Shown: positions 3,109 through 62,047, numbered from the stretch's first letter. The stretch: DNA of 64,000 nucleotides from a virus (IMGVR_UViG_3300033156_000215:6723-70722), one strand, 5' to 3'. A program made the numbers and translations. Notes: generated by a model from the letters alone, not told the origin.

Positions 3109-3118
3109 ATTTCTTCTC

Positions 3119-31695: not shown

Positions 31696-34374
31696 TTACT
31701 CCTTGTAATTGATTATTTCCAGAAGGTTCTCGTTCCAAAGGACATTTTCGCCTTCTTTTTTATGTGTTGCTATATATGGTACGTTATTCTTAGGAAATCC
31801 GCAAAACCAATTTCTTTGTCTCTCAGGTTTCTTGAAATCTATTCTTCTCCAATTTTTTATAAGCTTAGTTAGCTCAGGCATAGCTGTCTTATTACTCTTG
31901 ATAAAGTACTCGAAAAAGTATGATTTACACACACCTGCTGCTACATCTACAAAAGCTAACCAAGCAAATATTGCTCCAGTTTTTGCAGTAGCTCCAACTC
32001 CACCAGGAGGAGCTTCAAACGTAGGATGTTGAGGAGTGACAATCGTAAGCCATTCCTCAGGCTGAGGTGGTTTCTTCTCGGTTATTGTCATACTTCCTAC
32101 GTTGTTGACTATTCCAATTCCTAGCGGATAAATTAGGTCTCCAGTACCGACGTTCTGTAGAACTATCTTAGGTTGGTCAATAGTCCAGCCTATAAGATAA
32201 TCTTTTTCCGGATGTTTGAATCTAAAATCTATGTGAGCATTACCTTTGTTCCAAACATTGGATAAGTCTGTAATAGGTCTGGTAGAGATGTGCCTATTGA
32301 TAGCTGCTACTACGTCTCCTCCAGACTTCTCCGTAGCTCTAGCATCTTTTAGCAAAGCATTAAGAGACTTTATCCAGAACAGATTTTCTTTCTTCCAGAT
32401 AGCTTCTAAATCGTCTGCTTTGCTTAGACGCTCTATTAGGATTTCTCTGGATTTAGTATCATAGATTCCTCGGCTATGAATCTGCATTACTCCTCTGGTT
32501 GGTTTATCAGTAGTAATATAATATATCTTAGAAGATATTTCTTCTTTCGGTTTGGGTTCTGAGTAGTCCAGAGCTTCTAGCGCTACTGTAACTTTGTCTG
32601 GCTCTGTTCTTTCAGGGTCTAGTTCTTCTAGAATAGGATTCTCCCAAGAGTAACCTACACTTCCATCGTCTTTTACAAATCTTGTTATTCTATGCAATCT
32701 GACTGTAGCTATGTCTCCAAGTTCTGGTTCTACTGGTAATTTCTTGGCATAAGTAGAACCATAAGCGTACTCACCAACGTCTCTATGTCCGAAGGCAGAA
32801 TCCATCTTCCAGAGTTCTGGACATTCTAGTCCCTTCCAGTCTTTTCCTGTCCACTCTGGAGTTAGGTCTGATTCTGTTAGCTTTTTCTGAGTTTCTATTG
32901 GTACTAACTTGCTTTCAGGATCATAGATAGCACATCTTAGCATATATGTGGTAGAATCTTCTGCTAATTCTTTGTATAGTTTTATAGCTGCTTCTCCTTT
33001 TACAGGACTATGAGAAGTAGCTGGTTTTATCGCTTTCTTGAATATTCCGATAACTTTTACTTTGATTTCTTTGAAAAGCTTCATCTTAGCCCAGCCGGTT
33101 GACCTACCGTCTACATCGTAGGTGCTATCTGCTTTCTTAGCCATGAAACCTTCTGACTCTGGATATTCGATACACTTCTTCGAATATTTGTCAAAATCAG
33201 ATTTATTTGTTATTCTATAGCTTGGAAGCAAACGAATTGATTTTAGATTAGATTCCTGTTGTACTACTGTCCGTAAAATTTTCTGTCTATCTTCCAGGGG
33301 ATGATCTGTAAGATCTTCCCCGTCTTTGTATATTAAGTCGAAGACGTAATACACTATACCTTCGACTGGAGTATTAGAGCTGGTAATGGCAATCATATCA
33401 GCTCTATCTTTTCCAGGAAGAACTGCTTCTCCGTCTAGGATTACTGAATCACAATTTAGAGACCTTAGATCTTCTACTAGCTCTGGGAGATAATCAGCAC
33501 GGTCTCGTTTTCTGTCTTCTGTGAAGATTGCTATCTTGCCTCCACGCTTGTGAGCCATAAGACGTACACCGTTTATCTTGGGTTCGATATAGAAAGGTAG
33601 GTTGGGTTCTCCCCAATGTTCCCAGAAACTCTTAGGATCGTAGAAAGTATATTCACCATATCCTGTTTGAGACTTGAGAGGTTGAATCGGTCTTAGGGGA
33701 GAAACTTCAAGAGCTTGGATTTTCTCATCTCTCGGTTTGAAAGCAATCCAGTATAAAGGTTCTGCATTCTTAGGTGTTCTATTTTCTTCCACTTCAGCTC
33801 CGTAGAGACGAGCAAGCTTGACTTGTAGTCCTGGAGTAAGCATCTTGCAGTACAGCTTTTTCTTGTCCGTGAAAACAAAAGGAGAGAATATCTCTATATT
33901 CGGATAGTTTATATGACGCGTCTCTTCGGGGAATGGATAAAGAACTAAGTCTCCTAGAATCTTGTAATTCCTGTCAGGGCCTAAAGGCTCATAGAGAAAG
34001 TGAATCGGGAGTCCGTCATATAACTTATCCGTAGATAAGAGCTTGGTGATTATCTTCTCTAGCCCTGGGAGCTTGTTGGGACTGCGTATTAATATATCTA
34101 TATCATTAATATTCTTAATACTGGAATCGCTGACTGAAGAACCTACCTGAATCACCGCATCTCGTATAAATGTCATAGGCTCTAGAACCTTGAGAACTGA
34201 TGGTGACATCCCTCTTCGTAGCATCTCTTGGAAGTAATCTCTAGCGAGTAGTGCATACTCCAGCTTTGTTTCTGGAGATATTGCCTCTTTTTTGAGATGC
34301 ATAGTAAGATATCTCCAGTCATTCAGAAGTTCCTTGTCAGATTTTTCCTGCAAGTCTCCCCTAATCATTACCAA
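31696..34374 (-). CDS. ATP-dependent DNA ligase with N-terminal nucleotidyltransferase-like and C-terminal LigD phosphoesterase-like domains
   Basis: Ligase motifs I EPKING, III LDGE, IIIa VFDL, IV EGFMAK, V WAKMK; N-terminal VGS...DIDIL; C-terminal QIH.RG...HIDFR...LIGW. Confidence 0.85.
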   Translation of the reverse strand: MVMIRGDLQEKSDKELLNDWRYLTMHLKKEAISPETKLEYALLARDYFQEMLRRGMSPSVLKVLEPMTFIRDAVIQVGSSVSDSSIKNINDIDILIRSPNKLPGLEKIITKLLSTDKLYDGLPIHFLYEPLGPDRNYKILGDLVLYPFPEETRHINYPNIEIFSPFVFTDKKKLYCKMLTPGLQVKLARLYGAEVEENRTPKNAEPLYWIAFKPRDEKIQALEVSPLRPIQPLKSQTGYGEYTFYDPKSFWEHWGEPNLPFYIEPKINGVRLMAHKRGGKIAIFTEDRKRDRADYLPELVEDLRSLNCDSVILDGEAVLPGKDRADMIAITSSNTPVEGIVYYVFDLIYKDGEDLTDHPLEDRQKILRTVVQQESNLKSIRLLPSYRITNKSDFDKYSKKCIEYPESEGFMAKKADSTYDVDGRSTGWAKMKLFKEIKVKVIGIFKKAIKPATSHSPVKGEAAIKLYKELAEDSTTYMLRCAIYDPESKLVPIETQKKLTESDLTPEWTGKDWKGLECPELWKMDSAFGHRDVGEYAYGSTYAKKLPVEPELGDIATVRLHRITRFVKDDGSVGYSWENPILEELDPERTEPDKVTVALEALDYSEPKPKEEISSKIYYITTDKPTRGVMQIHSRGIYDTKSREILIERLSKADDLEAIWKKENLFWIKSLNALLKDARATEKSGGDVVAAINRHISTRPITDLSNVWNKGNAHIDFRFKHPEKDYLIGWTIDQPKIVLQNVGTGDLIYPLGIGIVNNVGSMTITEKKPPQPEEWLTIVTPQHPTFEAPPGGVGATAKTGAIFAWLAFVDVAAGVCKSYFFEYFIKSNKTAMPELTKLIKNWRRIDFKKPERQRNWFCGFPKNNVPYIATHKKEGENVLWNENLLEIINYKE
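33901..34031. repeat. Inverted pair of 18-bp motif inside the ligase gene
   Basis: CGGATAGTTTATATGACG 33901-33918 and CGTCATATAACTTATCCG 34014-34031; identical to the copies at 48080 and 48183. Confidence 0.85.
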
Positions 34375-35572
34375 CCTCTATACCAATAAAGTCAAATACC
34401 TTAGCAATTATTCTTCTAGCCTCATCATCTGTAAGCTGGCCATTCTCTTTCGCTGCAAGAGTAGCATTTATCAGACGAAGGATAGAACCGCTAAGCCTCT
34501 GCACATCTTTCGTGACCATTTGGCCAGGAACACATTCAACATCCATATCACCAGTAACCATCTTCACTACAGTAGAGAAATCAGAAGCTAATCTCTTCTG
34601 AATGCTGATTATCTCTTGCAATCCAGAGAAAGTAGAAAGATTATTTGGAATATCTCCGTTGAACAGGAACGAGGGAATCTCGGTGCTGTTTATCAAAAGG
34701 TCAAGCAAGAACTGAGCTTGCTGGTCTGCATTGGAAGTAACTTTAGGATCAAGCAAATCCCACTCTACTCTATCGTTTGAAGTGATGATGGAATTAGGAG
34801 CAGGAGGATATTTTCCTCGTGCTCTTTCTAAATCTTGTAATTGCTCTACCGTAGCACCAGCATATACCACCTTGAACCAGATTGAATTCCTAAACGCTGA
34901 GCCTCGCAGATAGGCATAGGCATATGTCTGGAATTCATTTAGCAAGTCAAGAATAGCAATGAACGGTGGCACTCCTCTTACTTGATCTCCGAAGTTACCA
35001 TAGGTGAAGAGGAATGCATTACCTTCTATCGAGTTGGTTGTTGGTCTATAAGTCAACATTTTGAAGGTTTTCTCTTCATCTCCTGAATTGACTGTAATCT
35101 TGTCTATTAATCTAGGATCTGCTGTACTGGATTCTACTTTTGTGATCTGGGTAGGAGAAACAGTTTGTACGTAAACTTTGTTATTTATTCTGTTTCTCTG
35201 AAATACCCAAAACATCTCTCCGTGAATAAGATACTCGATAAGCCAAGTTCTGAGATTGTTGTCTATTCGGTTTGGATATTTAAACCAGAATTCCTCAACC
35301 ATCTCCTTTGATTCTGGATCTGCTTGAAACTCGAATCCAGTCATTAGGATCGTATCTACTATCAGATTTATCAGCTTGTGATAGAGGAAGTTTGAGTAGT
35401 AGCTGTTTCGAGAGATGCGTCTTGCTCTGTCTAAAATAGTTTCTGTGAGATTGGTTGCTTTGCTGTAGTTTACCCAAACAGATTGGACTGAAGCCTCTGT
35501 AGCCAAATCTGTTGCTTCCCACAACGTATCCTGGGAACTTCTCTCTTTATTCTGATCTAGAGTTATAATCAT
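34361..35572 (-). CDS. Portal protein
   Basis: Follows TerL; R..SR..Y..N, FW...N, L+.GE.F, RG.P; 403 aa. Confidence 0.8.
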   Translation of the reverse strand: MIITLDQNKERSSQDTLWEATDLATEASVQSVWVNYSKATNLTETILDRARRISRNSYYSNFLYHKLINLIVDTILMTGFEFQADPESKEMVEEFWFKYPNRIDNNLRTWLIEYLIHGEMFWVFQRNRINNKVYVQTVSPTQITKVESSTADPRLIDKITVNSGDEEKTFKMLTYRPTTNSIEGNAFLFTYGNFGDQVRGVPPFIAILDLLNEFQTYAYAYLRGSAFRNSIWFKVVYAGATVEQLQDLERARGKYPPAPNSIITSNDRVEWDLLDPKVTSNADQQAQFLLDLLINSTEIPSFLFNGDIPNNLSTFSGLQEIISIQKRLASDFSTVVKMVTGDMDVECVPGQMVTKDVQRLSGSILRLINATLAAKENGQLTDDEARRIIAKVFDFIGIEVGND

Positions 35573-35865
35573 ACGTCAGCCACCTTTTTCCAAAACCAAA
35601 GAATCTTTTTATACACTTGAACTGGAACGTTACGATATGGGCCTGTCTGATGGGTTAGCTTAACGCTCAAGTCTTTAGCGAAGGGCAAGTGCATTACACT
35701 TATCAGGTCTACATCCTGATGCAAAGTAAACGAAGTTAGTCGTTTGTTTCCATAATATAATACCACAATAATTGAGTTTTCAGGTGAAAGGTTAGATGTA
35801 TCAAATACTATAAAGTATTCTCCCTTCCCCTTTAGTTCTAGTCTATCATTTGGCCTGGGCTCCAT
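35569..35865 (-). CDS. Hypothetical beta-rich protein between TerL and portal
   Basis: ORF coupled to both neighbours. Confidence 0.6.
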   Translation of the reverse strand: MEPRPNDRLELKGKGEYFIVFDTSNLSPENSIIVVLYYGNKRLTSFTLHQDVDLISVMHLPFAKDLSVKLTHQTGPYRNVPVQVYKKILWFWKKVADV

Positions 35866-37292
35866 ATTCTTTCAAATCCTCCTATAGAATTTATATTTTG
35901 ATATCCTGAGTTACCCTCTGTAGCTTGTTCTGATAACGGAGAGAAAGTCATGGCAGGTTCTGCTCCTTCTCTCCACGCTTCGAATGCGTTATAGACTGCA
36001 TCTAGCAAATCATCATGTGAGCTTGTAGCACCGAAGCTTCTCCACTCTTCAATAAATAGCTTTGTGATTTCTGCTGGAGTCTCAGAAGTTAGCATTGGCA
36101 GAGTGATTCTTTCGTTCCTGAACTCCTCGGCAAGTCTTTGGATTCTTATTGTTTTTGGAATGTTGAATCTCAAAGTTCTGATGTTGAAATTTGCATCTTT
36201 CATCAGAGGATTCAAAGCTCCTCTGTCCTCGATAGCTATTGTGATGGGATGATAACGATTAGCAAACCAGAGAATTTCTTTTACTTGTTCCACTACGTCT
36301 ATCTGCTTCTTGGTTCCATCGAGTATGAACATGTTTCCCATCTGGTCTACTCCTAAGACTGCAAGAGCAAAGTAGTCAACTCCATCCGCTTTATCGCAAG
36401 GGTCAACTCCTATAAAGACTGCTAGTTCTTCTGGAGTAGAATAATGGAACCTAAGCCAGCCAGGATCAAGAGCTGCTTTCTCTCGAATCGGTGTTTGCAT
36501 GTACTGAGCACGAAAGAATAGCGGATTAGATCTGTACTTTTGTTCTAGCCATTCTTTATCAAACTTCTCTGGCCACAGAGGATTATCTGGAGAAGTCTTT
36601 AGTACATGTACTCTCCAGTCATCCTTCTGTTTCATAATCTCATCGTATAAATCTCCCTCATAGAATCTAGACCCTGTAACAATAACTTGACCGTCTGGTT
36701 CAAGGCGCGGGTATAAGGCTCCCCAGAACCAACTAGAAATTTTCTCTCTCATTACAGGAGTCATAGAGTTAGTCTGGCTTATCACGTCATCAGCTATTAT
36801 CAAGTCTACTCTGAATCCAATAGTTCCTGAACCTACACCAAGAGCAACAAGGTTCGGGTCTTTTATGTATGTGTCATTGAATAACCAGCGTTGAGTCTTA
36901 GTCCATCCTTTTGTCTGTCTCTCAGGATTATCCGGTATTACCTTGCCTACTAGGGAAATAGAAGAAGGTGAAGCAAGGATATCGCATATCTGAGTAAGAA
37001 TAACCGATGAATAAGATACTGTATGCGTTGCTATAGCAATACGCTTACGCCTTCCTGTAGCCAGACACCATGCAGCATACCCAACCATAGTTGTAGTTTT
37101 TCTATGGCCAGGCGGAAGGAGAATTAGGATTCTCTGGTTATCTGGTATTGAAGCTACTATAGGTTGCCAGAACTTGGGAATACGCATATCGAATGCGTAG
37201 TTCATGTAATCGTAAAAGCTAATGTTTTTGTCTTTTGATGTAAGCTGTTGTTTTATATTTTCCAGTTCTTGCAAGAACGGATTAGAAATCAT
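35838..37292 (-). CDS. terL: Terminase large subunit
   Basis: PPGHRKTT Walker A variant, G.R.DLIIADD Walker B, GSRF...D, LWPE.F, AQYMQ.P, GVDP...DY, HDDLLDA. Confidence 0.93.
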   Translation of the reverse strand: MISNPFLQELENIKQQLTSKDKNISFYDYMNYAFDMRIPKFWQPIVASIPDNQRILILLPPGHRKTTTMVGYAAWCLATGRRKRIAIATHTVSYSSVILTQICDILASPSSISLVGKVIPDNPERQTKGWTKTQRWLFNDTYIKDPNLVALGVGSGTIGFRVDLIIADDVISQTNSMTPVMREKISSWFWGALYPRLEPDGQVIVTGSRFYEGDLYDEIMKQKDDWRVHVLKTSPDNPLWPEKFDKEWLEQKYRSNPLFFRAQYMQTPIREKAALDPGWLRFHYSTPEELAVFIGVDPCDKADGVDYFALAVLGVDQMGNMFILDGTKKQIDVVEQVKEILWFANRYHPITIAIEDRGALNPLMKDANFNIRTLRFNIPKTIRIQRLAEEFRNERITLPMLTSETPAEITKLFIEEWRSFGATSSHDDLLDAVYNAFEAWREGAEPAMTFSPLSEQATEGNSGYQNINSIGGFERIWSPGQMID

Positions 37293-37551
37293 TTGTCACC
37301 TCTGGAAATTTGATGTCTATTGAATCTTCTACCACTAAGTAGTTAGGGTTAGCGTAGTGCCAGTCTTCCGCTTCACTTTCTTTTATGATAGTCTTAGGAA
37401 TGCCTACTGGCCTGTTACCCTCTACTAAGTAATAGAGATAACAATACAGCAACTCGAACACAGTAGTATGGTATGCACCAGCTACTTGTTCGAATGCAGA
37501 TATAATCTCCTCGAAAGTCATTTCAAAGTCAACGTGCTTACTTTCCTTCAT
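37282..37551 (-). CDS. Hypothetical protein
   Basis: Coupled between polA and terL. Confidence 0.55.
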   Translation of the reverse strand: MKESKHVDFEMTFEEIISAFEQVAGAYHTTVFELLYCYLYYLVEGNRPVGIPKTIIKESEAEDWHYANPNYLVVEDSIDIKFPEVTNDF

Positions 37552-39205
37552 ACCAGTTATTCACCTCTGCTGCATTTGCTACCAAAGGTACTTTCAGAGA
37601 CGTAGCTGTTTCCATTGTTTCTTTTAGCTTTTTGAGTCCTTCAGGGTCTTTTGTTTCTGCTACAACTTCATCATGTACTTGAATTAGTTGATAGATATCA
37701 GGATGTTCTTCGTATAATTTTATTTGTGCTAATTTCATTATATACGCTGCTGTTGATTGTATGACAGCATTCGTTGCTTCAGTCTCCACGCTATCGTTTT
37801 CTCTGAATCTTCTCCTGTATCCAAAGATGTTTTCTACGTACTTGTTGTATGTACCTTCCTCGATGAAATAGTCCTGGATTTGCTTTATCTCTGGGAAAGT
37901 ACGCATGTATCTGTGATATAAGTTCACAGCTTCGTCATATTCGATGTTCAACCTTTTAGCCAGTCCGTGAGGACGCATTCCATAGATAACACCAAATGTT
38001 ATTGTTTTGGCATATCTTCTCTCTTCTTTTGAAATCTTAGTCTTGTTCAGGAATTGAGATGCCATTACCGTGTGTGCATCTTCTCCAGCTTCGATGGCTT
38101 GTACTAAGACGCTTGGTTTCTTGGTGATGCACTTTATCAAATGTGCTAAGACTCTCAGCTCCAGCGAGCTGTAGTCAGCTACCAGCATTCTATATCCTGG
38201 TCTAGGAATAAATATCTTTCTCAGCTCGTTAGCTGGAATATTCTGTAGGTTTGGATTTCTCGAAGCCAGTCTTGAGGTCACGGTTCCAGTTTGCAAGAAG
38301 TCGCAATAAATAACTTCTTGACCAGAACGTAGAAACGGTAGGATGAAACTGGATAGAAGCTTGAATGTCTTTCTGTATTCCAAGACTGCTTTAGCTAGTG
38401 GATTGTCAAGCTCTTCCAGTACTGCTTTCCCTACGCTTTGTTGTTTATGAGTTTTAGGAAAAAGAAGTTGGGATAATTGCTTGTTTGAGTTGATATTGAA
38501 ATGAGTGCCAGCAAGCTCGTAACATTTGTACATCTGTTTAGGCAAGATGTTTCTTTCAATGTCCTTAGACATCTGCCTCAAGAGTTCTACATCTATCATG
38601 ATTCCTCTTGATTCCATCGCAGTAAGGACTTTGAGGAAAGGCATCTCTACTTCATAGAAAAGAGTTTTCAGTCTTGGAGTCTTTTCTAATTTGTTTTTGT
38701 AATAGAGGTAAATCAAGTAAGAGTAGTAAGCATCAGAACGACAGTAAGCTTCAACTGAATCGAACAGAGCAAGTTGAGAGATATTAGCTCTGTCCATAGC
38801 TAAGGGATTTACTCCTAGTATTTCTCTGACAAGAGGCTTTAGTCCTTTGTTTCTTCCACTCTCACTAAGTAGCCAGTAAGCTACCATAGAATCGAAAGGA
38901 TTGTAGTTCTCGAATCTCAATCCTTCTTTGATTAGGAATTTCAAGTCGAACTTGAGGTTGAATCCGACAAGAGTCTCAAAGCCTCTTTCCAGTAGTTGTT
39001 TCGCTTGACTGAATTGCTGCGGAAAATTGAAGCTAACTGTCTCCTGTCCTGTGCTGAAGGCAGCCACAATGACTCTGTCTTTCGCAAGAGAGAGCCCTGT
39101 TGTTTCAGTGTCGAGACTAAGAGTTCTTTCTGTAGTTTTGTTAGGGTTGGAAAGGACTTGCTCCACCTTTTCGCTTTCATTCTTTGAAAATAGTTCTTTC
39201 TGCAT
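37538..39205 (-). CDS. polA: Family A DNA polymerase with 3'-5' exonuclease, no 5'-3' exonuclease
   Basis: LDTETTGL, GFNLKFD, YC..DA; T.T.RL.S.NPNLQNIP, ADYSSLELR, RRYAKTITFGVIYG, QVHDE. Confidence 0.95.
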   Translation of the reverse strand: MQKELFSKNESEKVEQVLSNPNKTTERTLSLDTETTGLSLAKDRVIVAAFSTGQETVSFNFPQQFSQAKQLLERGFETLVGFNLKFDLKFLIKEGLRFENYNPFDSMVAYWLLSESGRNKGLKPLVREILGVNPLAMDRANISQLALFDSVEAYCRSDAYYSYLIYLYYKNKLEKTPRLKTLFYEVEMPFLKVLTAMESRGIMIDVELLRQMSKDIERNILPKQMYKCYELAGTHFNINSNKQLSQLLFPKTHKQQSVGKAVLEELDNPLAKAVLEYRKTFKLLSSFILPFLRSGQEVIYCDFLQTGTVTSRLASRNPNLQNIPANELRKIFIPRPGYRMLVADYSSLELRVLAHLIKCITKKPSVLVQAIEAGEDAHTVMASQFLNKTKISKEERRYAKTITFGVIYGMRPHGLAKRLNIEYDEAVNLYHRYMRTFPEIKQIQDYFIEEGTYNKYVENIFGYRRRFRENDSVETEATNAVIQSTAAYIMKLAQIKLYEEHPDIYQLIQVHDEVVAETKDPEGLKKLKETMETATSLKVPLVANAAEVNNWYEGK

Positions 39206-39852: not shown

Positions 39853-41120
39853 AAGTCAACTACAGCCTTTGCCCATTCTTCGTCTGTAAAGTATGATAGG
39901 TCAGCCGAATCTACATCTTTCCCAAGGTTGGGGAAATGATAGTACTTGGTGAACTCAGCCCAAACTTGATGAATATCAGCATCAATAATAAACGTACCGA
40001 ATTTCGAATACTTGTCTTGCTGTTCTTTGGCAGCAGCAGTCCTTTTCCCACGCAAGGACTTTCCTAACTTGTCCTGCTCCAGTTCGTGGAGTGGGAAGTT
40101 TTTGGAAAAACGAATCCGCCTTTTCTCTGGAGTCATTATCAAGTGTTCCATCAGCTCAGGCAGCATTTGATAAGGAACCAGCTTAGGATTCAGTTCTTCC
40201 AACTGATCTTTGAGTGCTAAGAGTCCTGGAGTAAGGAAAAGGACGTAGTCACCTTCTTCAATCGGAAAGACTACGTAAGGTACTCCAGCTTCTCTGAGTC
40301 TTCGAGTTACTTTTGCATGGTCTTCTACTAGCACAGAATAGAAGCTCTGCATAGATAGAAGAACTGCATTAGCTACCTTCTTGAGATAGGTCTTTACTCT
40401 CCAGTTCCTGCACCGAGGGCAATTTCTAAAATCGTTGCAGAAAAGACGATATGCTCTAGTTCTGGTAACTATTGTCCTTGCTCCACACTTTCTGGGTACT
40501 CCAGCAGATTCCAGAAGCTTATTCATCTTCTCGTGAGGATGCTGAATATACCACTCGTTAGTGTTCTCGTGGTATTCTTTATCTGGATGGTAGTCGCTAT
40601 CTTTGAAATCTGTCTCTGGAATCGGAGTAGCTGTCTCAAGATATTCAGAAACAGAAAAAGGCCCAGAGATTTTGAATCCTTCGGGAAGAGCATATTTCAA
40701 GAAAGTATCAGGATCAATGCTTTCGTAGTTACGATATAGCTCCATGAAGTGAGCTACAAAGTTTGCATGGACTTCTTCACGCCAGTTCTGGCTAGGACTA
40801 ATAGGTTCAATATAAAAGATAGAACCATTGAAATCAACTGTCCAAGCGAATCCAGCATCTACGCCTAACGTCAACCAGTCGCTGAGCTTTGTGACTTTGT
40901 TAGCTGGAACTGGATCATCTTGATTCTTGTCTTTGAATTTTCTGTAGGAGCAGATATTAGGATAAGCAGCGAGTACAGTCTTAACGCCTTTTTCGATGTA
41001 CATCGAGTCCTGGAAACTCAATGATGTTGGAGGCTTGTTTTTGCTTCTCTCGTAGAAATCTTTCCGCGCCTTCTGCCACAGCTCGTCTGAAATCTTGATC
41101 TGGTGTATTATCTCCGGCAT
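39747..41120 (-). CDS. Hypothetical protein, possible replication initiator with Cys cluster
   Basis: CG....C...RNCPRC resembles Zn sites of Rep-type proteins; in the replication module; likely start MPEII at 41120. Confidence 0.5.
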   Translation of the reverse strand: MPEIIHQIKISDELWQKARKDFYERSKNKPPTSLSFQDSMYIEKGVKTVLAAYPNICSYRKFKDKNQDDPVPANKVTKLSDWLTLGVDAGFAWTVDFNGSIFYIEPISPSQNWREEVHANFVAHFMELYRNYESIDPDTFLKYALPEGFKISGPFSVSEYLETATPIPETDFKDSDYHPDKEYHENTNEWYIQHPHEKMNKLLESAGVPRKCGARTIVTRTRAYRLFCNDFRNCPRCRNWRVKTYLKKVANAVLLSMQSFYSVLVEDHAKVTRRLREAGVPYVVFPIEEGDYVLFLTPGLLALKDQLEELNPKLVPYQMLPELMEHLIMTPEKRRIRFSKNFPLHELEQDKLGKSLRGKRTAAAKEQQDKYSKFGTFIIDADIHQVWAEFTKYYHFPNLGKDVDSADLSYFTDEEWAKAVVDLCTKYKAWIYGESQFYDADPWIVKLKLKFILEPAA

Positions 41121-41286
41121 AATCTTTCCGCTCCTCAAAAGCTATATTTTCATCATCAGTAATTGGGGCTACTACACCCAAAGTAAACTCATCTAGTAGA
41201 ACTGTATAGTTTACTCTAACTCTTTCAGTAGGTTTCTTACTAAATGGGTCATGTGACTCTCTTTCAACTTCCCAATATTCATCCAT
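40981..41286 (-). CDS. Hypothetical protein
   Basis: ATG with GAGG upstream; long 3' overlap with the next gene. Confidence 0.4.
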   Translation of the reverse strand: MDEYWEVERESHDPFSKKPTERVRVNYTVLLDEFTLGVVAPITDDENIAFEERKDYAGDNTPDQDFRRAVAEGAERFLREKQKQASNIIEFPGLDVHRKRR

Positions 41287-41483
41287 ACTTTAAATCCCTC
41301 TGAATTGATAAATTCTCTTGCTTCTTTTCGGATGGTGGGGCTAACAGAGCTAAGGTCAACTAAGGCCGTTAGTACAACGGCCATAGCTAAAGCTCTATAG
41401 GGATCGTCAGGAAACTCTTCGTTGATAATATCAACTAGGGTTTCCCGCTTTTTGCTGCTCGTGCCAATTTCTGAGTAATTCAC
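41211..41483 (-). CDS. Conserved small phage protein
   Basis: DPYRALA.AV+..A..D....EAR.F..S pattern. Confidence 0.6.
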   Translation of the reverse strand: MNYSEIGTSSKKRETLVDIINEEFPDDPYRALAMAVVLTALVDLSSVSPTIRKEAREFINSEGFKVWMNIGKLKESHMTHLVRNLLKELE

Positions 41484-41892
41484 GTAACCACTCTGGAACT
41501 ACTACGCCACAAAGCGCAGCGTTTTCTACAATACTCAAAGCTTCGGCACCTGCAAAGAAGAAGATAGCGCCTTGCTTGATGTAGTCTAATTTTAGCATAA
41601 AGTCTACTTGTGCCGCAACTACGACAACAAGCCAAATCAGGACTTTCTTCGCTATCCCGTTCTTTAGTTCTTGACTGCTCAAATCTTTAGTATAGCCAGC
41701 TCTGATGAATCCGGCTAATACGTCAACAGTCTGCAAAATTAGAAGTGTCAACATAGATTCTTCGAGTCCTCTAAAGATGTAAGAAAGAAACCAAATTAAA
41801 CCACCAAGAGCTGACTTTACCAAAAACTGTACTCCTCTAGTCTCTATCGAGACTAACCAATCTGTAGCTAAGTTCTGCGTTATTCTGTACAT
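41431..41892 (-). CDS. Phage holin (Phage_holin_4 / toxin-secretion-like family)
   Basis: D...G...A.....SS....G..KK, E..SI.EN...G...P..L. Confidence 0.88.
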   Translation of the reverse strand: MYRITQNLATDWLVSIETRGVQFLVKSALGGLIWFLSYIFRGLEESMLTLLILQTVDVLAGFIRAGYTKDLSSQELKNGIAKKVLIWLVVVVAAQVDFMLKLDYIKQGAIFFFAGAEALSIVENAALCGVVVPEWLRELLRNWHEQQKAGNPS

Positions 41893-42580
41893 CTATTCTC
41901 CACCATCCTGGTAATGATACGTAACCGAACCTTCTCAAAGCCCAGACATCATCACTAACAGCAGTACCGTTAGTCATCAATGTTAGATTGCCTATCTCTA
42001 TTATACCCGAAGTATGAAAATGTCCTATCACTACATGTGTCAAATCTCTGTATGAAGCTTTCCAGCGTGTTGCCCTGTTGATATAAGCAAACCAAGGAAC
42101 TGAACCAGAATAAGCAGTAAACTCTCCACCGTGAGATATTAGAAAGGATTTACCTGCTATATCTACCTTTCTTATGAGGAACTCGTCTTCACAGTCGCTC
42201 AGGAGTTTAGTGTTGGCCTCTTTCTCGACGTATCTGTAAAAGACAATATCCCAGTTATCTCGTTCTGATAGGGACTGGCTTCTCCCGTGGTTTCCTGCCA
42301 CAGCGTAGCATTTTACTCTTCTCTGCTTGATCAGATTGGAGAAATACAAAGCAACTTCTTGAGCTTGTCTTTCTGCGGAGACTACCTCTTGATGGGCAGC
42401 TTGGGTTTTGTAAATATTCGACCCATCTATTATATCACCTAATAGGAGAATTGTTGAGGGATTGCGTTTGGGGAGAGTTTCTACTGCTCTGGTCAATCTA
42501 GATAAAGCTACCGTAGTATCAAACGTTGATGTTTTCTTGCCGTAGTGCAAATCCGAAATAATTAGTATTGAATGTGACAC
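41837..42580 (-). CDS. Calcineurin-like metallophosphoesterase
   Basis: SDLHYG, GDIIDG, GNHG, HG, GHFH. Confidence 0.9.
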   Translation of the reverse strand: MSHSILIISDLHYGKKTSTFDTTVALSRLTRAVETLPKRNPSTILLLGDIIDGSNIYKTQAAHQEVVSAERQAQEVALYFSNLIKQRRVKCYAVAGNHGRSQSLSERDNWDIVFYRYVEKEANTKLLSDCEDEFLIRKVDIAGKSFLISHGGEFTAYSGSVPWFAYINRATRWKASYRDLTHVVIGHFHTSGIIEIGNLTLMTNGTAVSDDVWALRRFGYVSLPGWWRIDVQNNAELSYRLVSLDRD

Positions 42581-42600
42581 CTTGCTTTTACTCCTTATAG

Positions 42601-42645
42601 TAAAACAACCCGCCTCTAGAACTTTTTGTCTGGAAGCGGGTTGTT
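42601..42645 (-). terminator. Stem-loop / intrinsic terminator
   Basis: AACAACCCGC (42604-42613) pairs with GCGGGTTGTT (42636-42645); T run follows on the minus strand. Confidence 0.5.
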
Positions 42646-42668
42646 CCGATGTGGTGAAACTGGACAGA

Positions 42669-43091
42669 CTACACCTTATTATAATACTTCTTTATTAGAT
42701 GCTTTATTGCGTAGCGTCTCGCTGCATTCTCACAATGTAACGGTTCCCAGCCTTTCTCTCTGTACCTTCTTAGCGATTCTTCAATAATTTCTTCGAATTC
42801 AAGAGGTCTATTCTCGAAGAGAGAATTTGCTGCTAGATTCATGATTTGTCTACCGTGCTTATCTGGAGCAACTTTGCTGCTAGCTAGATAACCTAAATCT
42901 GCGAAAACTGAACCAAGAGTCCAGTTTCTTTTCATTTCTAACACAGCTATAACTGCTGCTGCCAGAGCGTCATCGTCTAGATAAGTTCTCATCAGCTCAA
43001 ACTTTTCTGGATAAGCTTCAGAGACTCGGCTTACCAATTCCTCTCCTGCGTTCTCGTTTCTGTGTAGCCATTTTACTGCTAACTTTCTCAT
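42669..43091 (-). CDS. Hypothetical protein
   Basis: RBS AGGAG; helical. Confidence 0.7.
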   Translation of the reverse strand: MRKLAVKWLHRNENAGEELVSRVSEAYPEKFELMRTYLDDDALAAAVIAVLEMKRNWTLGSVFADLGYLASSKVAPDKHGRQIMNLAANSLFENRPLEFEEIIEESLRRYREKGWEPLHCENAARRYAIKHLIKKYYNKV

Positions 43092-43117
43092 GTTGATTCT
43101 CCTTTGTTCCTGAGATG

Positions 43118-43639
43118 CTAACGAATGTAGATTATATTCTTCATTGGCACTATTTGACCATTAGCAAGTTGTATGGCCTTTCTTCCTAGCTTCTGGAGGA
43201 TTCCTACAAGAATTACTCCACCTTGAATCTTGACATTATAAGCTGCTCCAGGAATCAAGAACTGGCTTCCAGTTCCTACCGATTCTTTTCCTAGCACTTG
43301 GCAGCAAGCGATAGAATCACGTCCGACAACGAAACCACCACTAGCAAATCGAGTAGGCTTCAGCCAGACAGCTTCATCTGTAACATAGGTTACGATTCCA
43401 TCAAAAGTCTCGTTGGAAACAGTAACTATCTTCAAAGCTTGACCAAGCTCGAAATTCATTTCAAACGTTTCATCTAGCTCTACTTCTTGAGGCTTGGTCT
43501 CCTCCACTGGTTGAGATTCTGGAATAACTGTAGATTGAGTTAGATCTCCGACCATCGGATTTGGCATCTCTGTAACATTAGCATTGGCTTCCGTGGTCTT
43601 GACATCAGTTTCAGTTTTCTTCCTTCTTGGCATAATCAC
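43118..43639 (-). CDS. Protein with two Sm/Hfq-like (or SH3-like) beta-barrel domains
   Basis: GQALKIVT.SNETFDGIV....DEAVWL...V.RDSI and G..YNVKI.GG..L.G.L.......I.L.....VP..NI. Confidence 0.5.
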   Translation of the reverse strand: MIMPRRKKTETDVKTTEANANVTEMPNPMVGDLTQSTVIPESQPVEETKPQEVELDETFEMNFELGQALKIVTVSNETFDGIVTYVTDEAVWLKPTRFASGGFVVGRDSIACCQVLGKESVGTGSQFLIPGAAYNVKIQGGVILVGILQKLGRKAIQLANGQIVPMKNIIYIR

Positions 43640-44402
43640 TCCTTATCTTGTCCCATGCTGTAGTATAGTCATCTTGATAATCCTTGAATGGATTATCAGT
43701 ATCTAGTATATCACAAATTTCTTGAATTGAATAATCAAGCTTAGAACGAGCAGCTATCATGACACTAGCTATTGAGTCAGGTTCAAATGTGTCTACGTCA
43801 AAGTTTTCTAGAGGATCTATGACTTCTACTTTCTTAGCTTGCTCGAATCTCTGCTCTTCCAACACATCCTCAACAGGACGAAATGGGAAGGCAATAGCGT
43901 TGACTAGACATCGTCGTATTGCTTTTGTCTCTGCTAGCATTATGAGGTCTTCATCTGTGAAGTTTTCTCTTCCTGCCTTTACGCTACTAGCTGCTCCATA
44001 AGCTGTGTAAGTAGAACCGTCTAGAAATTCCGCTTGTGCTTTTACTACTGCTACTCTCTCTTGATCTTGGTCTGAAGAATCCCAAGGGAATTTTACTATC
44101 TCAGTCTTTATTCCTTTTGCTTGCCTCGGATCAATTCTGAATGCCCAGCGGAATCCGTCAGCAGTAACATAAGGCTGGACTCCATTCTTAGTGGGAATCA
44201 TTGCCAAGGCACGAAGAGGAAGATTGTAAGCTTCAGCCATCTGTATAGCTTCTCTAACTGAAGCTTCGTTCAGCATGACTGAGCCTGCTACTCGAAGTAG
44301 CTTTCTTGCTTCCTTCCAATCAAGCTTCCATTCTTTCTCGATTTGTTCTAGAGCTTTGTTGAATGAAAAGCCTACTGGTACTAATTCGTTTGAATTCGAC
44401 AT
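43611..44402 (-). CDS. Single-strand annealing recombinase (RecT/Rad52-like)
   Basis: PYVTADG, A.V.A....DG....YG.A, MLAETKAIRR; adjacent to the exonuclease. Confidence 0.75.
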   Translation of the reverse strand: MSNSNELVPVGFSFNKALEQIEKEWKLDWKEARKLLRVAGSVMLNEASVREAIQMAEAYNLPLRALAMIPTKNGVQPYVTADGFRWAFRIDPRQAKGIKTEIVKFPWDSSDQDQERVAVVKAQAEFLDGSTYTAYGAASSVKAGRENFTDEDLIMLAETKAIRRCLVNAIAFPFRPVEDVLEEQRFEQAKKVEVIDPLENFDVDTFEPDSIASVMIAARSKLDYSIQEICDILDTDNPFKDYQDDYTTAWDKIRSDYAKKEEN

Positions 44403-45151
44403 GCCATATTCTCCTTTACGCACATGTTGTAAAATGTACAGAATTTAGGTGAGCAAATCCAAGACGTGAAGTTTGGATAGAAGACACCATTGTTTATGCT
44501 AGCTGCTAGTTCTGGTAGAAAGTTTTCTTCAAACCACTTCACTTGATTGGGTGTTGGATTTACTCTGACTATTTGTATGAAAGGCTCTTTTGATTTTACT
44601 AACACATGATACTGAAATGCAAATGAACCTGTGAGCGATGCGTAGACTAGTGACTGAACGTCTACTTTGTACTGTCTTCTCGGTCTATTCGAAACTTTGT
44701 AGTCTACGATATTTCCATCAGAATCTACTCTGTCAACTGTTCCTACTAGTAAGACATCTCCTACTTCTTTTTTGATTTCTTGTTCTACTGCGATGTAATC
44801 TAGAGAATGCAAAGAAACGTATTTCTCTACTAGATAAGCTGCTGTTTCTAATTCAGCTTCTTTATGTGGAAGCTCGGGGAGAGGTTTATCCTCTCCCCTC
44901 TTCCAGCTTTCTCCAGTCTCTACTTCAAATACCAGATATTCTCTCGCCTCCTTTGGACTCATTTTTTGTTTAGCTGCTTCAGCAAGCGTTGCATGAACAC
45001 AGCTACCGATGTACATCGCTTCGGATACCTGATACGGTACTTGAGCTACGTATCTGAAATAGTAGAGCTTAGGACAATAGATGTAATCATTTATTGATGA
45101 TTGATGCAACTCTAGTTTAGAATGGCTTTGCGAGTTCAAGATTGTCTCCAT
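44381..45151 (-). CDS. PD-(D/E)xK exonuclease, Cas4/AddB-like with Cys cluster
   Basis: SSI..Y..CP, GS.VH, G.VDR...IVDYK, Q...Y, C....C.F...C. Confidence 0.88.
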   Translation of the reverse strand: METILNSQSHSKLELHQSSINDYIYCPKLYYFRYVAQVPYQVSEAMYIGSCVHATLAEAAKQKMSPKEAREYLVFEVETGESWKRGEDKPLPELPHKEAELETAAYLVEKYVSLHSLDYIAVEQEIKKEVGDVLLVGTVDRVDSDGNIVDYKVSNRPRRQYKVDVQSLVYASLTGSFAFQYHVLVKSKEPFIQIVRVNPTPNQVKWFEENFLPELAASINNGVFYPNFTSWICSPKFCTFYNMCVKENMACRIQTN

Positions 45152-45734
45152 CCACGCGAACTAGGTTAGCACTAGCGAGAGCTTCATAATCCAGCAAAGC
45201 TCTCATCAAATCTGCGTCTTCAGCAAAGAGCTTTACTACCCTGAGATTGTAAACCTCTTGGGTAAGAGGTTCCTCTTCCTCGAAAATCTTTATCAAAGCA
45301 GACGGAATATCCATCTTGCTTGAAGATTCCTGTGAGCTTTCGTCAGCTTCCTCTGCAAGCTCTTCATCAGTAACCATTGCAGTAGGAATCCAGACTCTAG
45401 TCTGATAACGACCAGATCCGATAGTCTGTTGCTCAAACTGGAAAGTCTTTCCAACTAGCCACTGTTCATCATCTTCTTCTGGATCGAAACCAAGCTTCTC
45501 AAGAGCCTTGCAGAAAGTACGCCAAGGCGAGATCGGAGCACGGCTAAGATTGAGACGGAATGAAGGTAGAGCTTTGCCAGTATTAGGATTCTCCATCCCG
45601 AAGTAAACCCTGGTCAAAACTACCTCTTGACCATCATCCCTGGTAAAGCTCTCTTCACGCACGTCTACATCGAACACTCTAGCAACCATTCTCCTTGGTT
45701 CATCCTTGAAATACTCTTTCGGTACCAAACCCAT
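45117..45734 (-). CDS. Putative single-stranded DNA-binding protein
   Basis: OB-like beta pattern, L.KLG......LVGK.F, acidic linker; next to the exonuclease and annealase; RBS GGAGG. Confidence 0.5.
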   Translation of the reverse strand: MGLVPKEYFKDEPRRMVARVFDVDVREESFTRDDGQEVVLTRVYFGMENPNTGKALPSFRLNLSRAPISPWRTFCKALEKLGFDPEEDDEQWLVGKTFQFEQQTIGSGRYQTRVWIPTAMVTDEELAEEADESSQESSSKMDIPSALIKIFEEEEPLTQEVYNLRVVKLFAEDADLMRALLDYEALASANLVRVDGDNLELAKPF

Positions 45735-45760
45735 TTTGAAAATTCCTCCATTTGTAATAA

Positions 45761-46876
45761 TTAGTTTTTAGTTCTTAGTGCTTGATGAAACCATGTTGGG
45801 AACTTCTCGTAATTCTGTCTGTAGAACCACTCAAAGTTCGAATCAATTATATACGTTACGCTATAGTCTGTCAAGTCACGAGAACACCTCCCTGAACCTT
45901 GCACAAGTGATGATATTGTTTTCCAAGAATACCATTCATTCCAGTCAACTCCTTTTGGTGCTATAGAGTCTAGCTTAGGGAAGGGCATCTTGGCAAATAT
46001 GATAAACCTTCCTAAATCGTGCGGAAGATCTAATCCACGGATAACGGATGGAGAGACTAGAATTCTACCATAACCTGAGCGGAATCTTTCAATTAGAGAA
46101 GTACGAGAAACAGACCTCGATTGATAGAGAATCGAGTCTTGAGGTAAATTAGCAGTTAGATATTTTCCAATCTCTTCCGTTAGGTACATGTTCACCGAGT
46201 GTACTATTCCACGCCAGTTGTTTAGCTTCGTGCATAATTCTAGCACAGCCGGTAGCAGCTTGTCAAGATTTGGATTTGAAAGCGAAACGTGTGCTTTCGG
46301 CTGATAGACAATCGGTCTTATCTCTGGCTTGATGTATAAATCATTGACCGAGATAAATGAGTAATTGTCCATAAAAGCAGATAGGTTCTTATCTGCAAGA
46401 AACAGCTCAGAATTCAGAATTGTTGCCGACATCACAACTAGAACATTAGCATACGGAATCAGAGAAGACAAATCTTTGATCTCGTCTGCTTCATCGATCA
46501 CAACAACATCAGCGGGGGACTTGCTAAGAGAAGCAGTAAGCTTATAGTTTAGCACTTGAATCTCGCTATCTTTTATTTTCTTGTCCAATAAATCCTCCAG
46601 AGGTAGAAGGTTTGTTAGGACTTTCTCTCTGCTACCTACATGCATTCCTAAGCCATAGAAACCACTGGCATCGAGATATTGTTCTTGGAGTTGTTTCGTA
46701 GCTGTGAAGATTACAGTTCTTCTCGATTTAAAGACAAAATGAACTGCTGCTCCAAGATAACTCTTTCCAGAACCTGTCGGAGCTTCGATCAAGATAACAC
46801 GTTTCGAAGTGTCCAGATTGTCTAGGACGTATTTCTGTATTTCTCTGGGTACAACTTGCGAATAGATATCTGTCAT
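45761..46876 (-). CDS. Compact SF2 helicase, DinG/Rad3-like
   Basis: APTGSGKS, T.TK.LQ.Q, DEAD, SAT, GLDLP, K.PFP, QGSGRCSR...DY. Confidence 0.88.
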   Translation of the reverse strand: MTDIYSQVVPREIQKYVLDNLDTSKRVILIEAPTGSGKSYLGAAVHFVFKSRRTVIFTATKQLQEQYLDASGFYGLGMHVGSREKVLTNLLPLEDLLDKKIKDSEIQVLNYKLTASLSKSPADVVVIDEADEIKDLSSLIPYANVLVVMSATILNSELFLADKNLSAFMDNYSFISVNDLYIKPEIRPIVYQPKAHVSLSNPNLDKLLPAVLELCTKLNNWRGIVHSVNMYLTEEIGKYLTANLPQDSILYQSRSVSRTSLIERFRSGYGRILVSPSVIRGLDLPHDLGRFIIFAKMPFPKLDSIAPKGVDWNEWYSWKTISSLVQGSGRCSRDLTDYSVTYIIDSNFEWFYRQNYEKFPTWFHQALRTKN

Positions 46877-47079
46877 TCTTCTTCGTTGTCTTCACCCTCG
46901 ATCTTAGCAGCAAGATTTACTCCAGTCAAAACATGCTCATATCCGTGAGGGATATTACCATCTGTGAGATATTTAATATATTCGGATACGAGAGTGCTAA
47001 CTGTAGTACCGTAGTAAGTGCAGATGTAGATTAACTTCTTAGCTTCTTCTTCCGAAACAGTAACAACTACTCTTGGCAT
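46873..47079 (-). CDS. Ribbon-helix-helix (CopG-like) regulator
   Basis: MPRVVVTVSEEE...L...C...GTTVS.LV.EYI; first gene after the leftward promoter. Confidence 0.7.
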   Translation of the reverse strand: MPRVVVTVSEEEAKKLIYICTYYGTTVSTLVSEYIKYLTDGNIPHGYEHVLTGVNLAAKIEGEDNEEE

Positions 47080-47103
47080 TTTTATATACCTACCTTGTGT
47101 GTT

Positions 47104-47133
47104 ATTATAGTAAAGACAACATACCCGTTCCAA
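47104..47133 (-). promoter_or_regulatory. Leftward promoter for the replication arm
   Basis: TTGGAA-18-TATAAT, about 25 nt upstream of ATG 47079. Confidence 0.55.
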
Positions 47134-47157
47134 AAAATTAAGGAGTAGACTGATACC

Positions 47158-47610
47158 ATGCAAAGTGAGAACATTGGCAAAGAATACTTGACCTCAATAC
47201 TGAATAATAGAGACAGAGATAAGGCCAAAAAACTGCTCAACGATCCTAAAGAATTATATTCGCTAAAAGAGACAATAGTGAATCTGAAAATCCTGGAAGC
47301 TAAGGTGACTGCTTACCTGTCGCAGCAGGAAGAGCTTGACCCTGAGCTTCTGAAACAATTATTGTCCATCGAAACCACGCTTGTCAAATCGGTTAGTTCT
47401 GCAATTGAAACTGAGACTAAGCTAGGCAAGCTTGTAAGCATCGAGGAGTTATCCAGCTACACAGAGATATTCGTGCAGTATCTTATCAAGTATATCGAGG
47501 ACGAAGCTGAGCGTAGACGATTGCTCGCTGAGTTAGAATATAAAGTCAGTAACATGGGGCAAGAAGATTCTGAGACCGTTGACTCTGAGTTTAGACTGTT
47601 AGAGTCTTAA
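47158..47610 (+). CDS. Helical protein, possible terminase small subunit
   Basis: RBS AAGGAG; DP..L.SL.E.I..L...coiled coil...VSIEE...I.D...R..L pattern reminiscent of TerS oligomerisation domains. Confidence 0.5.
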   Translation: MQSENIGKEYLTSILNNRDRDKAKKLLNDPKELYSLKETIVNLKILEAKVTAYLSQQEELDPELLKQLLSIETTLVKSVSSAIETETKLGKLVSIEELSSYTEIFVQYLIKYIEDEAERRRLLAELEYKVSNMGQEDSETVDSEFRLLES

Positions 47611-47700
47611 TAAATATTAATATTAATTCTTAATACCAGGTGTCTGTAGTTTTTCCAAGTCTCAAAAAAATTCTTATTCCGGAGAAATTATATGACGAAG

Positions 47701-47728
47701 AAAGGGCCGCTCTTGGCGGCCCCTTTTT
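47701..47728 (+). terminator. Intrinsic terminator (possibly bidirectional)
   Basis: AAAGGGCCGC-TCTTG-GCGGCCCCTTTTT. Confidence 0.75.
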
Positions 47729-47927
47729 AATATATAGGAATTTAATTGGTTGTGTACTAAGCTATGTTTCCTAACCTTGACCGTTTACTACAGTTACCTC
47801 CTAGCTGAAAATCTGTGCGTCTAGTCATTTTTTCATCCTATGTCTCGGCGTCATATAACCTATCCGTAGTATTTATATCACAATTGGCCTGGACTGGCAA
47901 ATTCTGTATGCGTTATCTAGTTGCAAC

Positions 47928-48019
47928 TAAAAGGGAATGCGAGCGGATCTCTCCACTCGCATAGGGTGCTTGGAGCCACACCTTTCTCCGAACTTCTTTG
48001 GATTGTTCTCATTATACCA
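47928..48019 (-). ncRNA. Candidate small RNA (promoter plus GNRA-capped hairpin)
   Basis: TGGTATAAT 48019-48011; 11-bp stem 47937-47962 with GAGA loop on the minus strand, followed by TCCCTTTT. Confidence 0.4.
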
Positions 48020-48267
48020 TGAAGCATTAAGAATCGTTCTGTAGTCTTTATACCACGAGTTACTCGGATACGCAAATAACGGATAGTTTATATGACGAAA
48101 GAGTGATCTGGACTTGAGCTTGCTAGCAACTACTTTCGTGTTAGGAATGAGAAAGCCATCTCAATTTTGCTGTTTCACAGAACGTCATATAACTTATCCG
48201 TATCTTGGGTTAACCCGCCCAGCTAAGTCCGACCAACTGGCGGGCTATTTCGGAAATAGGTCGAAAC

Positions 48268-48296
48268 TTGACAACGGCACCGCTATATGGTATAAT
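48268..48296 (+). promoter_or_regulatory. Consensus sigma70 promoter driving the right arm
   Basis: TTGACA-17-TATAAT with extended -10 TG. Confidence 0.9.
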
Positions 48297-52012: not shown

Positions 52013-52022
52013 GGAGGAAACA

Positions 52023-52823: not shown

Positions 52824-52917
52824 TCAAATTGGCCCCGCTCCTTTGCTTTATCTAATCAAAGAGTATAAGTTGTCTAATAAGACAGCAGAAAAAGACGAGA
52901 AGGAGACAGATTAAACA

Positions 52918-53697: not shown

Positions 53698-53717
53698 TAA
53701 AGAAGGGGAATATCCGA

Positions 53718-54521: not shown

Positions 54522-54533
54522 TTAGGAGTAACG

Positions 54534-55625: not shown

Positions 55626-55648
55626 GAATAAAGATAAGAGGATAAAAC

Positions 55649-56731: not shown

Positions 56732-56776
56732 GTCAGATCAAAACGTTAAGAATTTTAGAGTTGGAGAATAGTTAGG

Positions 56777-57883: not shown

Positions 57884-57894
57884 GGAGAAACAAG

Positions 57895-59037: not shown

Positions 59038-59053
59038 AACAAAGGAGAGATCA

Positions 59054-62025: not shown

Positions 62026-62047
62026 TAACAAACAAAGGAGAGATAAA

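Follow-up and report, generated by a model that had tools for sequence, protein, structure and literature searches.

Why should a phage carry an 18-bp word as exact, facing inverted copies inside a ligase-like gene, and the same exact copies again in a non-coding region 14 kb away? The question is raised by a 64,000-nucleotide stretch of DNA (hereafter, the window), which covers positions 6723-70722 of the 70,722-bp virus record IMGVR_UViG_3300033156_000215, a record whose ends overlap by 114 bp. A preliminary description of the window had listed six copies of the word in three inverted pairs and had attributed them to a protein that bridges paired sites. A motif scan of the whole record revealed 14 sites, seven on each strand, versus none for the reversed control pattern. 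Within the window, six matches were found at three or fewer mismatches, against 0.03 expected, and none of 100 shuffles reached six. The six positions first described, their exact or variant status, and the spacers of 95, 85 and 151 bp between partners were all recovered; the count of three pairs held for the window and fell short for the record, where eight further sites lie at positions 2589-3219. These eight occupy a 912-bp non-coding gap outside the window (hub 1), four sites lie where two gene blocks diverge (hub 2), and two lie in the ligase-like gene (Table 1). By 10- and 11-letter word counts, the motif is the sole strongly repeated family in the genome. An assembly artefact, named at the outset as one of the findings that would undo the claim, is unlikely, because the word (18-19 bp) is below the assembler word length and because short contigs of a related strain, from an independent run, hold two hub-1 copies of the motif. 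Both copies are exact, yet 6 of the 13 adjoining enclosed bases differ.

Alignment of the 14 sites in one orientation revealed a two-part, asymmetric site, (T)A-CGGATA followed by two variable bases and TTATATGACG. At least 13 of the 14 sites agree at each of positions 1-6 (CGGATA) and 9-18 (TTATATGACG), no two-fold symmetry exists within the 18 bp, and the outer flank is A/T-rich, mostly ending in TA. No half-site enrichment was found. The two variable bases, positions 7-8, distinguish left-type from right-type sites: left sites have GT, GG, TT or AA (mostly GT), and right sites have AG six times and GG once. The two conserved blocks are spaced approximately one helical turn apart, as would be expected for contacts in two successive major grooves.

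All sites have a facing partner, with the GACG ends inward, within 151 nt. Nearest-partner spacers in the six pairs are 22, 118, 117, 95, 151 and 85 bp, and of the two odd sites, R2704 faces a partner 97 bp away and L3036 one at 148 bp. Sites R3020 and L3036 abut back to back, forming a 34-bp near-palindrome. The DNA enclosed by the pairs is mutually unrelated, as had been described for the window (one of 30 orientation-aware comparisons at p<=0.05). It had also been remarked that the 95- and 85-bp spacers differ by about one helical turn, and this extends to all pairs: the best spacer period in a 5-20 bp scan was 10.7 bp (p 0.008-0.02). The Rayleigh statistic of the six spacers was R 0.78 at 10.5 bp (p 0.021), with a maximum over 10.3-10.7 bp of R 0.88 at 10.7 bp (p 0.008); when the two odd-site partners were included, R was 0.845 at 10.65 bp (p 0.013). 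Helical phasing of partner sites, which bridged operators and origin boxes share, is therefore present here, in a small sample and by a post hoc test. Such phasing is expected if a protein bridges sites on duplex DNA, and is not something that a hairpin requires.

The reading that we favour, with about even confidence, is that a protein which bridges or wraps DNA docks at these phased sites, and that they serve as hubs of an origin, operator or roadblock type. The 18-19 bp word would be an asymmetric two-part site recognised by a DNA-binding protein with sequence specificity, probably a product of the phage itself. Because the spacers are whole turns, two protein units bound at partner sites, or a single oligomer, would have the same orientation, so that the intervening 22-151 bp could be bridged, looped or wrapped. 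Twelve of the sites would build two multi-site hubs, and the satellite pair in the ligase-like gene would be tolerated in variable loops of the protein. As to the role of such a complex, we favour an origin/initiator-type complex like that of SPP1 oriL/oriR, with the intragenic pair serving as a roadblock or secondary site; an operator or transcription roadblock would come next and packaging recognition third. The protein bridging proposed in the preliminary description is, then, the best-supported reading, through the phasing, the two-block site and the lack of compensated changes between arms described below, while the binder that it calls for was not identified.

The first pair lies, as had been stated, within a minus-strand open reading frame (ORF) for a protein with a ligase domain (Table 1). 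The gene forms part of the head module, with the portal gene on one side and the glycosyltransferase-like and protease-capsid genes on the other. Its product was compared with four relatives of 52-60% identity. The 24-residue core encoded between the arms is the most conserved stretch of the N-terminal domain and is kept in all four relatives, and the arms themselves sit in two flanking variable loops, with five and two extra residues compared with three of the relatives; the fourth, P0005, has three of the five extra residues in the first loop. Since the core is conserved in the relatives and the arms fall in flanking variable loops, the enclosed DNA is, as judged from the protein comparison, coding sequence native to the gene rather than cargo carried in by an inserted element. 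This makes plausible the earlier suggestion that, within the coding sequence, the DNA itself is under selection. At the DNA level, two relatives (L009 and L010) have a 13/18 look-alike of the downstream arm (the 33901 site) at the homologous place, positions 3421-3438, and nothing was found at the homologous place for the upstream arm (34014). An inverted 14/18 partner of the look-alike is seen 113 nt further downstream in L009/L010, at positions 3552-3569, and may be due to chance; by a rough estimate, about 0.07 such look-alike matches are expected per locus.

Other observations were made on the same protein. By our own reading, it has an N-terminal GSS...DIDILI motif that is nucleotidyltransferase-like; an AT-rich word near the pair is explained, also by our reading, by the codons for DILI. 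Ligase motif I is KING here versus K(I/V)DG in all four relatives, and so the activity of the protein may be altered.

The greedy ORF map comprises 90 ORFs in two blocks, one running rightward from record position ~53880 through the record end to 4680, the other leftward from 53885 down to 4628. Of these ORFs, 69 were scanned with Pfam and 7 more with PHROGs, and among them were no recombinase, no transposase and no recognisable initiator. The leftward block begins with the ribbon-helix-helix-like (RHH-like) protein discussed below, a helicase, a PD-(D/E)XK nuclease, a metallophosphatase and a holin-family protein; it continues with a family A DNA polymerase, the large terminase subunit, a portal-like protein and the 892-aa ligase-like protein, followed by the glycosyltransferase-like protein, a protease-major-capsid fusion and tail genes, including that of the tape-measure protein. 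Hub 1 (record 2589-3219) fills its gap in the rightward block. Hub 2 (window 47680-48200) fills a non-coding stretch of about 0.8 kb at the point where the blocks diverge, which is also the minimum of the cumulative GC skew and adjoins replication genes. The two hubs, with their 12 sites, are the two largest non-coding regions. They have further elements in common. AT-rich palindromes are present at two of the three motif loci, so that an AT-rich element stands beside the boxes in the manner of SPP1, and the boxes of the two hubs match at 16 of 17 bases (record 2942-2958 and 54329-54345). An identical 14-bp terminator tail, CCCTTTTTAATATA, is also common to both (window 47718-47731 and record 3278-3291).

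Table 1. Motif sites and neighbouring features. Window coordinates count from the first letter of the 64,000-nucleotide stretch, record positions from that of the 70,722-bp record; L, left-type site; R, right-type site.
Feature	Coordinates	Strand	Remarks
Left-type site, exact CGGATAGTTTATATGACG	window 33901..33918	+	Inside ligase-like gene; minus-strand coding RHINYP, variable loop
Right-type site, exact CGTCATATAACTTATCCG	window 34014..34031	-	Inside ligase-like gene; encodes (T)DKLYD, within five-residue insertion relative to relatives
Degenerate left-type site, three mismatches	window 47680..47697	+	Between stop codon of 150-aa gene and terminator
Right-type variant, one mismatch	window 47849..47866	-	GG at positions 7-8; exact complement of left site at record 2589
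Left-type site, exact CGGATAGTTTATATGACG	window 48080..48097	+	
Right-type site, exact CGTCATATAACTTATCCG	window 48183..48200	-	Ends 68 bp upstream of -35 element of strong promoter
Hub 1 sites	record L2589, R2629, R2704, L2884, R3020, L3036, L3067, R3202		Outside the window
Ligase-like gene sites	record L40623, R40736		
Hub 2 sites	record L54402, R54571, L54802, R54905		
Ligase-like gene, 892 aa	window 31696..34374	-	ATP-dependent DNA ligase domain PF01068, E 1e-27
Enclosed 95 bp of ligase pair	window 33919..34013	-	Native coding for conserved core HFLYEPLGPDR.Y..LGDL.LYPF
Large terminase gene	window 35838..37292		No motif site adjoining
RHH-like protein, 68 aa (from internal ATG)	window 46873..47079	-	First gene of leftward block; candidate binder
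All-helical protein, 150 aa	window 47158..47610	+	Beside hub 2; candidate binder; eight homologues
AT-rich palindromic box	window 47604..47636	.	Related box inside 2884/3020 pair of hub 1, record 2932-2961
Intrinsic-terminator-like hairpin and T run	window 47704..47730	+	Between arms of 47680/47849 pair; terminator of 150-aa gene
Putative leftward unit	window 47928..48019	-	Extended -10 TGGTATAAT at 48019-48011, terminator at 47962-47937, RNA of ~75 nt
Sigma-70-type promoter, TTGACA-17-TATAAT with TG extension	window 48268..48296	+	12/12 consensus positions; heads rightward block

The strong promoter that had been noted near 48183 is fully consensus and heads the rightward block (Table 1). On the opposite strand, between the two hub-2 pairs, a putative leftward RNA of ~75 nt (fold z -3.0) could be traced, and the unit that specifies it is possibly a small RNA gene. 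Its extended -10 element, TGGTATAAT, was read by eye and is absent from the promoter-scan output. The pair 48080/48183 starts 61 bp upstream of this element and thus appears to lie between divergent promoters; being upstream of both the plus-strand promoter and the minus-strand extended -10, the pair is probably not transcribed. A terminator splits the arms of the 47680/47849 pair. Rfam searches matched no family.

These arrangements bear on the possibility that the arms act not as duplex sites but as the two halves of an RNA or single-stranded DNA stem of 18-19 bp, with a conserved two-base mismatch that is read by a protein or nuclease; an RNase III-type processing site, a terminator, or a hairpin for a single-strand-specific enzyme would be examples. 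The facing partner within 151 nt that every site possesses is what such a stem requires, and the plus-strand folds closed with the arm helix in six of six pairs. The 2589/2629 pair, which has a 22-nt loop, a folding energy of -29.5 kcal/mol and a six-T run right after a stop codon, resembles an intrinsic terminator. The mismatch at positions 7-8 recurs in seven of eight potential stems, which suits structure-specific recognition and would explain the difference between left and right sites. Several results run the other way. Not one compensated, double-sided change was seen in the eight arm pairings, the variants at positions 5, 7, 8 and 18 being uncompensated, and complementarity alone does not require that all pairs share one sequence, nor does a hairpin call for spacers phased at 10.7 bp. 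While both arms are likely to be on one transcript in the ligase pair and hub 1, this is unlikely for 48080/48183, the best pair, which probably lies outside any transcript, and for 47680/47849, whose arms a terminator separates. The ligase pair, although in the leftward block, has the same absolute left/right order as the pairs of the rightward block, and therefore its RNA stem differs from theirs: the mismatch in the ligase mRNA would be A-C and G-A, not G-U and U-C. A T run follows only one of the six pairs, no HUH enzyme family was found, and the Rfam searches were, as stated, negative. On balance we consider a stem unlikely.

The pairs could instead be crossover sites of a shufflon-like or inverton system, in which a host invertase, or an unrecognised one of the phage, flips the enclosed segments, recoding the ligase-like gene and turning over the terminator in hub 2. 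In favour of this, inverted repeats flank short segments (six facing pairs and two extra sites), and hub 1 packs eight sites in both orientations into 630 bp, as in a shufflon. When the 131-bp ligase unit was inverted in silico, the reading frame stayed open, which was the case for 743 of 14,765 (5.0%) same-phase 131-nt segments of this genome's genes. Asymmetric crossover sites have been described for Rci (its sfx sites; PMC11852207), and so have intragenic recoding invertons in bacteria (PMC10028968), and the sites here share with both an asymmetric word of ~19 bp, the two orientations, short segments and, in places, an intragenic location; phasing, too, would help sites to meet across very short DNA. 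Unlike those systems, the segments here are much shorter, and no recombinase was found in the record. A six-frame search of the whole record revealed no serine, tyrosine or IS110-type recombinase (PF00239, PF00589, PF01548), though a host enzyme is possible, and none was recognised in the Pfam scans of 69 of the 90 ORFs. The 22-bp spacer cannot invert, and 85-151 bp is very short for inversion. The site also lacks the two-fold symmetry of most crossover sites, and the best-conserved part of the N-terminal domain of the ligase-like protein would be lost in a flip. Parts of the phage were present in two sequencing runs, as Logan contigs only, in which neither joints nor a flipped orientation were seen, and which are uninformative on inversion; the contig ends left loose at 34014 and 47868 turned out to represent hub-1 copies in the related strain, not junctions. 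We find inversion quite improbable, and highly doubtful in its fullest form, in which the 14 sites would be a multi-inversion crossover system of a lytic-looking marine tailed phage that flips hub segments and recodes 32 codons of the ligase-like gene.

The pairs might also be outward-firing divergent promoters for phage-directed transcription, in which case each word would contain a -10-like TATAAC/TATAAA. The motif is the sole conserved multi-copy word and is concentrated in the non-coding hubs, the 48080/48183 pair lies exactly where leftward and rightward transcription diverge, and the left site of the ligase pair points toward the capsid and tail genes. We nevertheless regard this as very unlikely. 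Transcription from half of the sites would run antisense into genes, hub 1 would provide four rightward promoters for three small genes, and there is no conserved -35 element, since the enclosed DNA is unrelated. A search conducted without a positive control found no phage RNA polymerase, the phasing would be left unexplained, and the rightward block is already provided with a host-type promoter of consensus sequence.

Remnants of a miniature inverted-repeat transposable element, with the arms as terminal inverted repeats, would account for inverted repeats of 18-19 bp with slightly different left and right ends and for enclosed lengths (58-187 bp, arms included) typical of such elements, but this is already close to refuted: the ligase pair encloses conserved coding sequence present in four of four relatives, the enclosed sequences are unrelated among pairs, flanks read at all six pairs have no target-site duplication, no transposase family (PF01797, PF01548, PF00665) was found, and no multi-copy occurrence of the word was seen in the viral and species genome collections or among the metagenome matches listed.

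In these collections, the exact right word gave one single match among viral sequences and four, likewise single, among species genomes. With two free bases, nine single matches were obtained in the viral collection and at least 118 stretches in metagenomes, where the 80 listed were all single. All matches listed outside the genome are single and at chance level. The six-frame search of the whole record for five families (resolvase, phage integrase, Y1 transposase, IS110 transposase and rve integrase) was negative for each of them; CheckV completeness is 64% despite the terminal overlap, so a gene may be missing.

No host repeat family and no near relative of the phage were found; among 130 loci (L009 onward), only three ligase relatives resemble the genome. 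A query with the ligase-like protein retrieved three loci at 57-60% identity, one with its profile retrieved 13 loci, and a search with its N-terminal part only two relatives, at 52-54% identity. Queries with the ATPase and polymerase retrieved no relatives, and hub 2 DNA had no match in phage DNA. The closest two of the 13 profile loci (L144 and L145) contain neither a long non-coding gap nor a repeated word family, and there were no such inverted pairs among the commonest repeated words of the 13. Separately, the distant ligase relatives L149 and L156 contain, at 4889-4925, four tandem 10-bp units with a fifth ~420 bp away, resembling an iteron array.

Returning to the bridging or wrapping protein that we favour, candidates for it were sought near hub 2 (Table 1). 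The preliminary description had named RHH and small-terminase-like proteins among possible binders. The modelled structure of the 68-aa protein is strand-helix-helix (predicted local distance difference test score, pLDDT, 76), its best fold matches are ParG and CopG at E>1, and the fold is consistent with an RHH protein, to which extent the first suggestion stands. The sequence had no match in Pfam or PHROGs, and among solved structures it matched only designed helical repeats. The second suggestion failed. As a small terminase, the 150-aa protein received Atlas scores of 0.78-0.83, below the bar, and had no profile support (solved structures, Pfam of members); its model (pLDDT 64) matched generic coiled coils only. 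Four of seven homologues of the 150-aa protein have an extra N-terminal Cys/His-rich, zinc-ribbon-like stretch that is missing from the phage copy. A further 89-aa ORF just upstream of the large terminase gene (window 37282-37551, minus strand) is a weak paralogue of the 68-aa protein, with the shared stretch Y.TTV..L...Y..YL..GN.P.G, in which 12 of 24 residues are identical (E 0.17).

A number of points weigh against a bridging or wrapping protein. There are only candidates for the binder, one with an RHH match at E>1 and the other a small-terminase lead that did not hold, and Pfam scans of 69 of the 90 ORFs recognised no initiator gene. The phasing test was picked after the data had been seen and relies on 6-8 spacers, some of which share sites. 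A spacer without contacts does not explain why left and right sites differ at positions 7-8, a difference that fits a conserved stem mismatch or pairs copied as units. The 22-bp spacer cannot loop, and the pair that has it, 2589/2629, is terminator-like, with its 22-nt loop and six-T run. The motif sites overlap no -35 or -10 element. Finally, no reading accounts for how native coding DNA came to be flanked by exact arms.

Comparison with known systems places these sites near several of them. Operators that loop at gal (OE/OI) and lac (O1/O3) are ~90-115 bp apart and act only when on the same helix face; they are two-fold symmetric, and each set belongs to one promoter. Among mycobacteriophages, the stoperators of Cluster A are a repeat family oriented with transcription. 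The sites described here differ from the gal and lac operators in being asymmetric, in being present in many copies and in including a pair inside a gene.

The nearest precedent appears to be SPP1. The gp38 boxes of this phage, at oriL and oriR, are ~13 kb apart, one set in coding and one in non-coding DNA, each with an AT-rich unwinding element, and the distal site bound by gp38 has been proposed to stall forks (PMC6316719 and PMC3485210). Here, similarly, exact sites 14 kb apart are found in a coding sequence and a non-coding hub, and AT-rich palindromes at both hubs. SPP1 has direct repeats, with oriL in the initiator's own gene; the sites here form facing inverted pairs at three loci, the host gene is ligase-like, and neither direct repeats in an initiator gene nor an initiator was recognised. 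The site geometry differs from that of every precedent.

In lambda cosB, the small terminase subunit docks at R3 and R2 across the I1 bend, which is sharpened by IHF (PMC4856287). The likeness would lie in two repeated sites brought face to face by a bend, with a dimeric DNA-binding domain on both, which is a cosB feature. The cosB sites occupy one locus by cosN and the terminase genes; in contrast, the 14 sites here are spread over three loci, none of them beside the large terminase gene, and neither sites by a cutting site nor a recognisable small terminase were found. Phage-specific words in many copies are also known from mycobacteriophages, as the extended start-associated sequences of Cluster K and the 17-bp repeats of Cluster O, the latter with more than 30 copies, roughly one in three of which lies in a coding region (PMC3203893 and PMC4351075). 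The present motif resembles these families, which are words of 13-17 bp, partly in genes, of unknown or repressor-binding function. Cluster K spacers are 4-13 bp and tied to start codons, whereas those described here are 22-151 bp, phased and not linked to start codons; Cluster O sites are each two-fold symmetric, whereas these are asymmetric.

Some features of the genome lie apart from the motif. Twelve paralogous genes stand in tandem (window 51196-63028 and record 151-1131) and take up ~13 kb of the rightward block; four of their products are ~260 aa and eight are 326-611 aa, with pairwise identity of 22-40% and no Pfam match. A single 767-aa product (window 28083-30386, minus strand) combines the prohead protease with the major capsid protein. 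Further genes specify DNA methyltransferases of the N6/N4 and C5 types, one of each, ThyX, and a ribonucleotide reductase that has a TSCPD domain; one of these genes is at record 5543-6310.

Phage-specific words present in many copies are usually handles for replication, expression timing or packaging. The layout described here is unusual among them, with asymmetric sites, facing phased pairs, two hubs, and one pair placed in protein loops around a conserved core. Should the segments invert, intragenic recoding inversions would extend to viruses, through an unrecognised or host recombinase. If, as we favour, a bridging protein binds these sites, they would represent a compact natural case of short-range looping or wrapping in an uncultured marine phage lineage that has no cultured relative, and would illustrate how a gene can accommodate a binding site with no harm to its protein.

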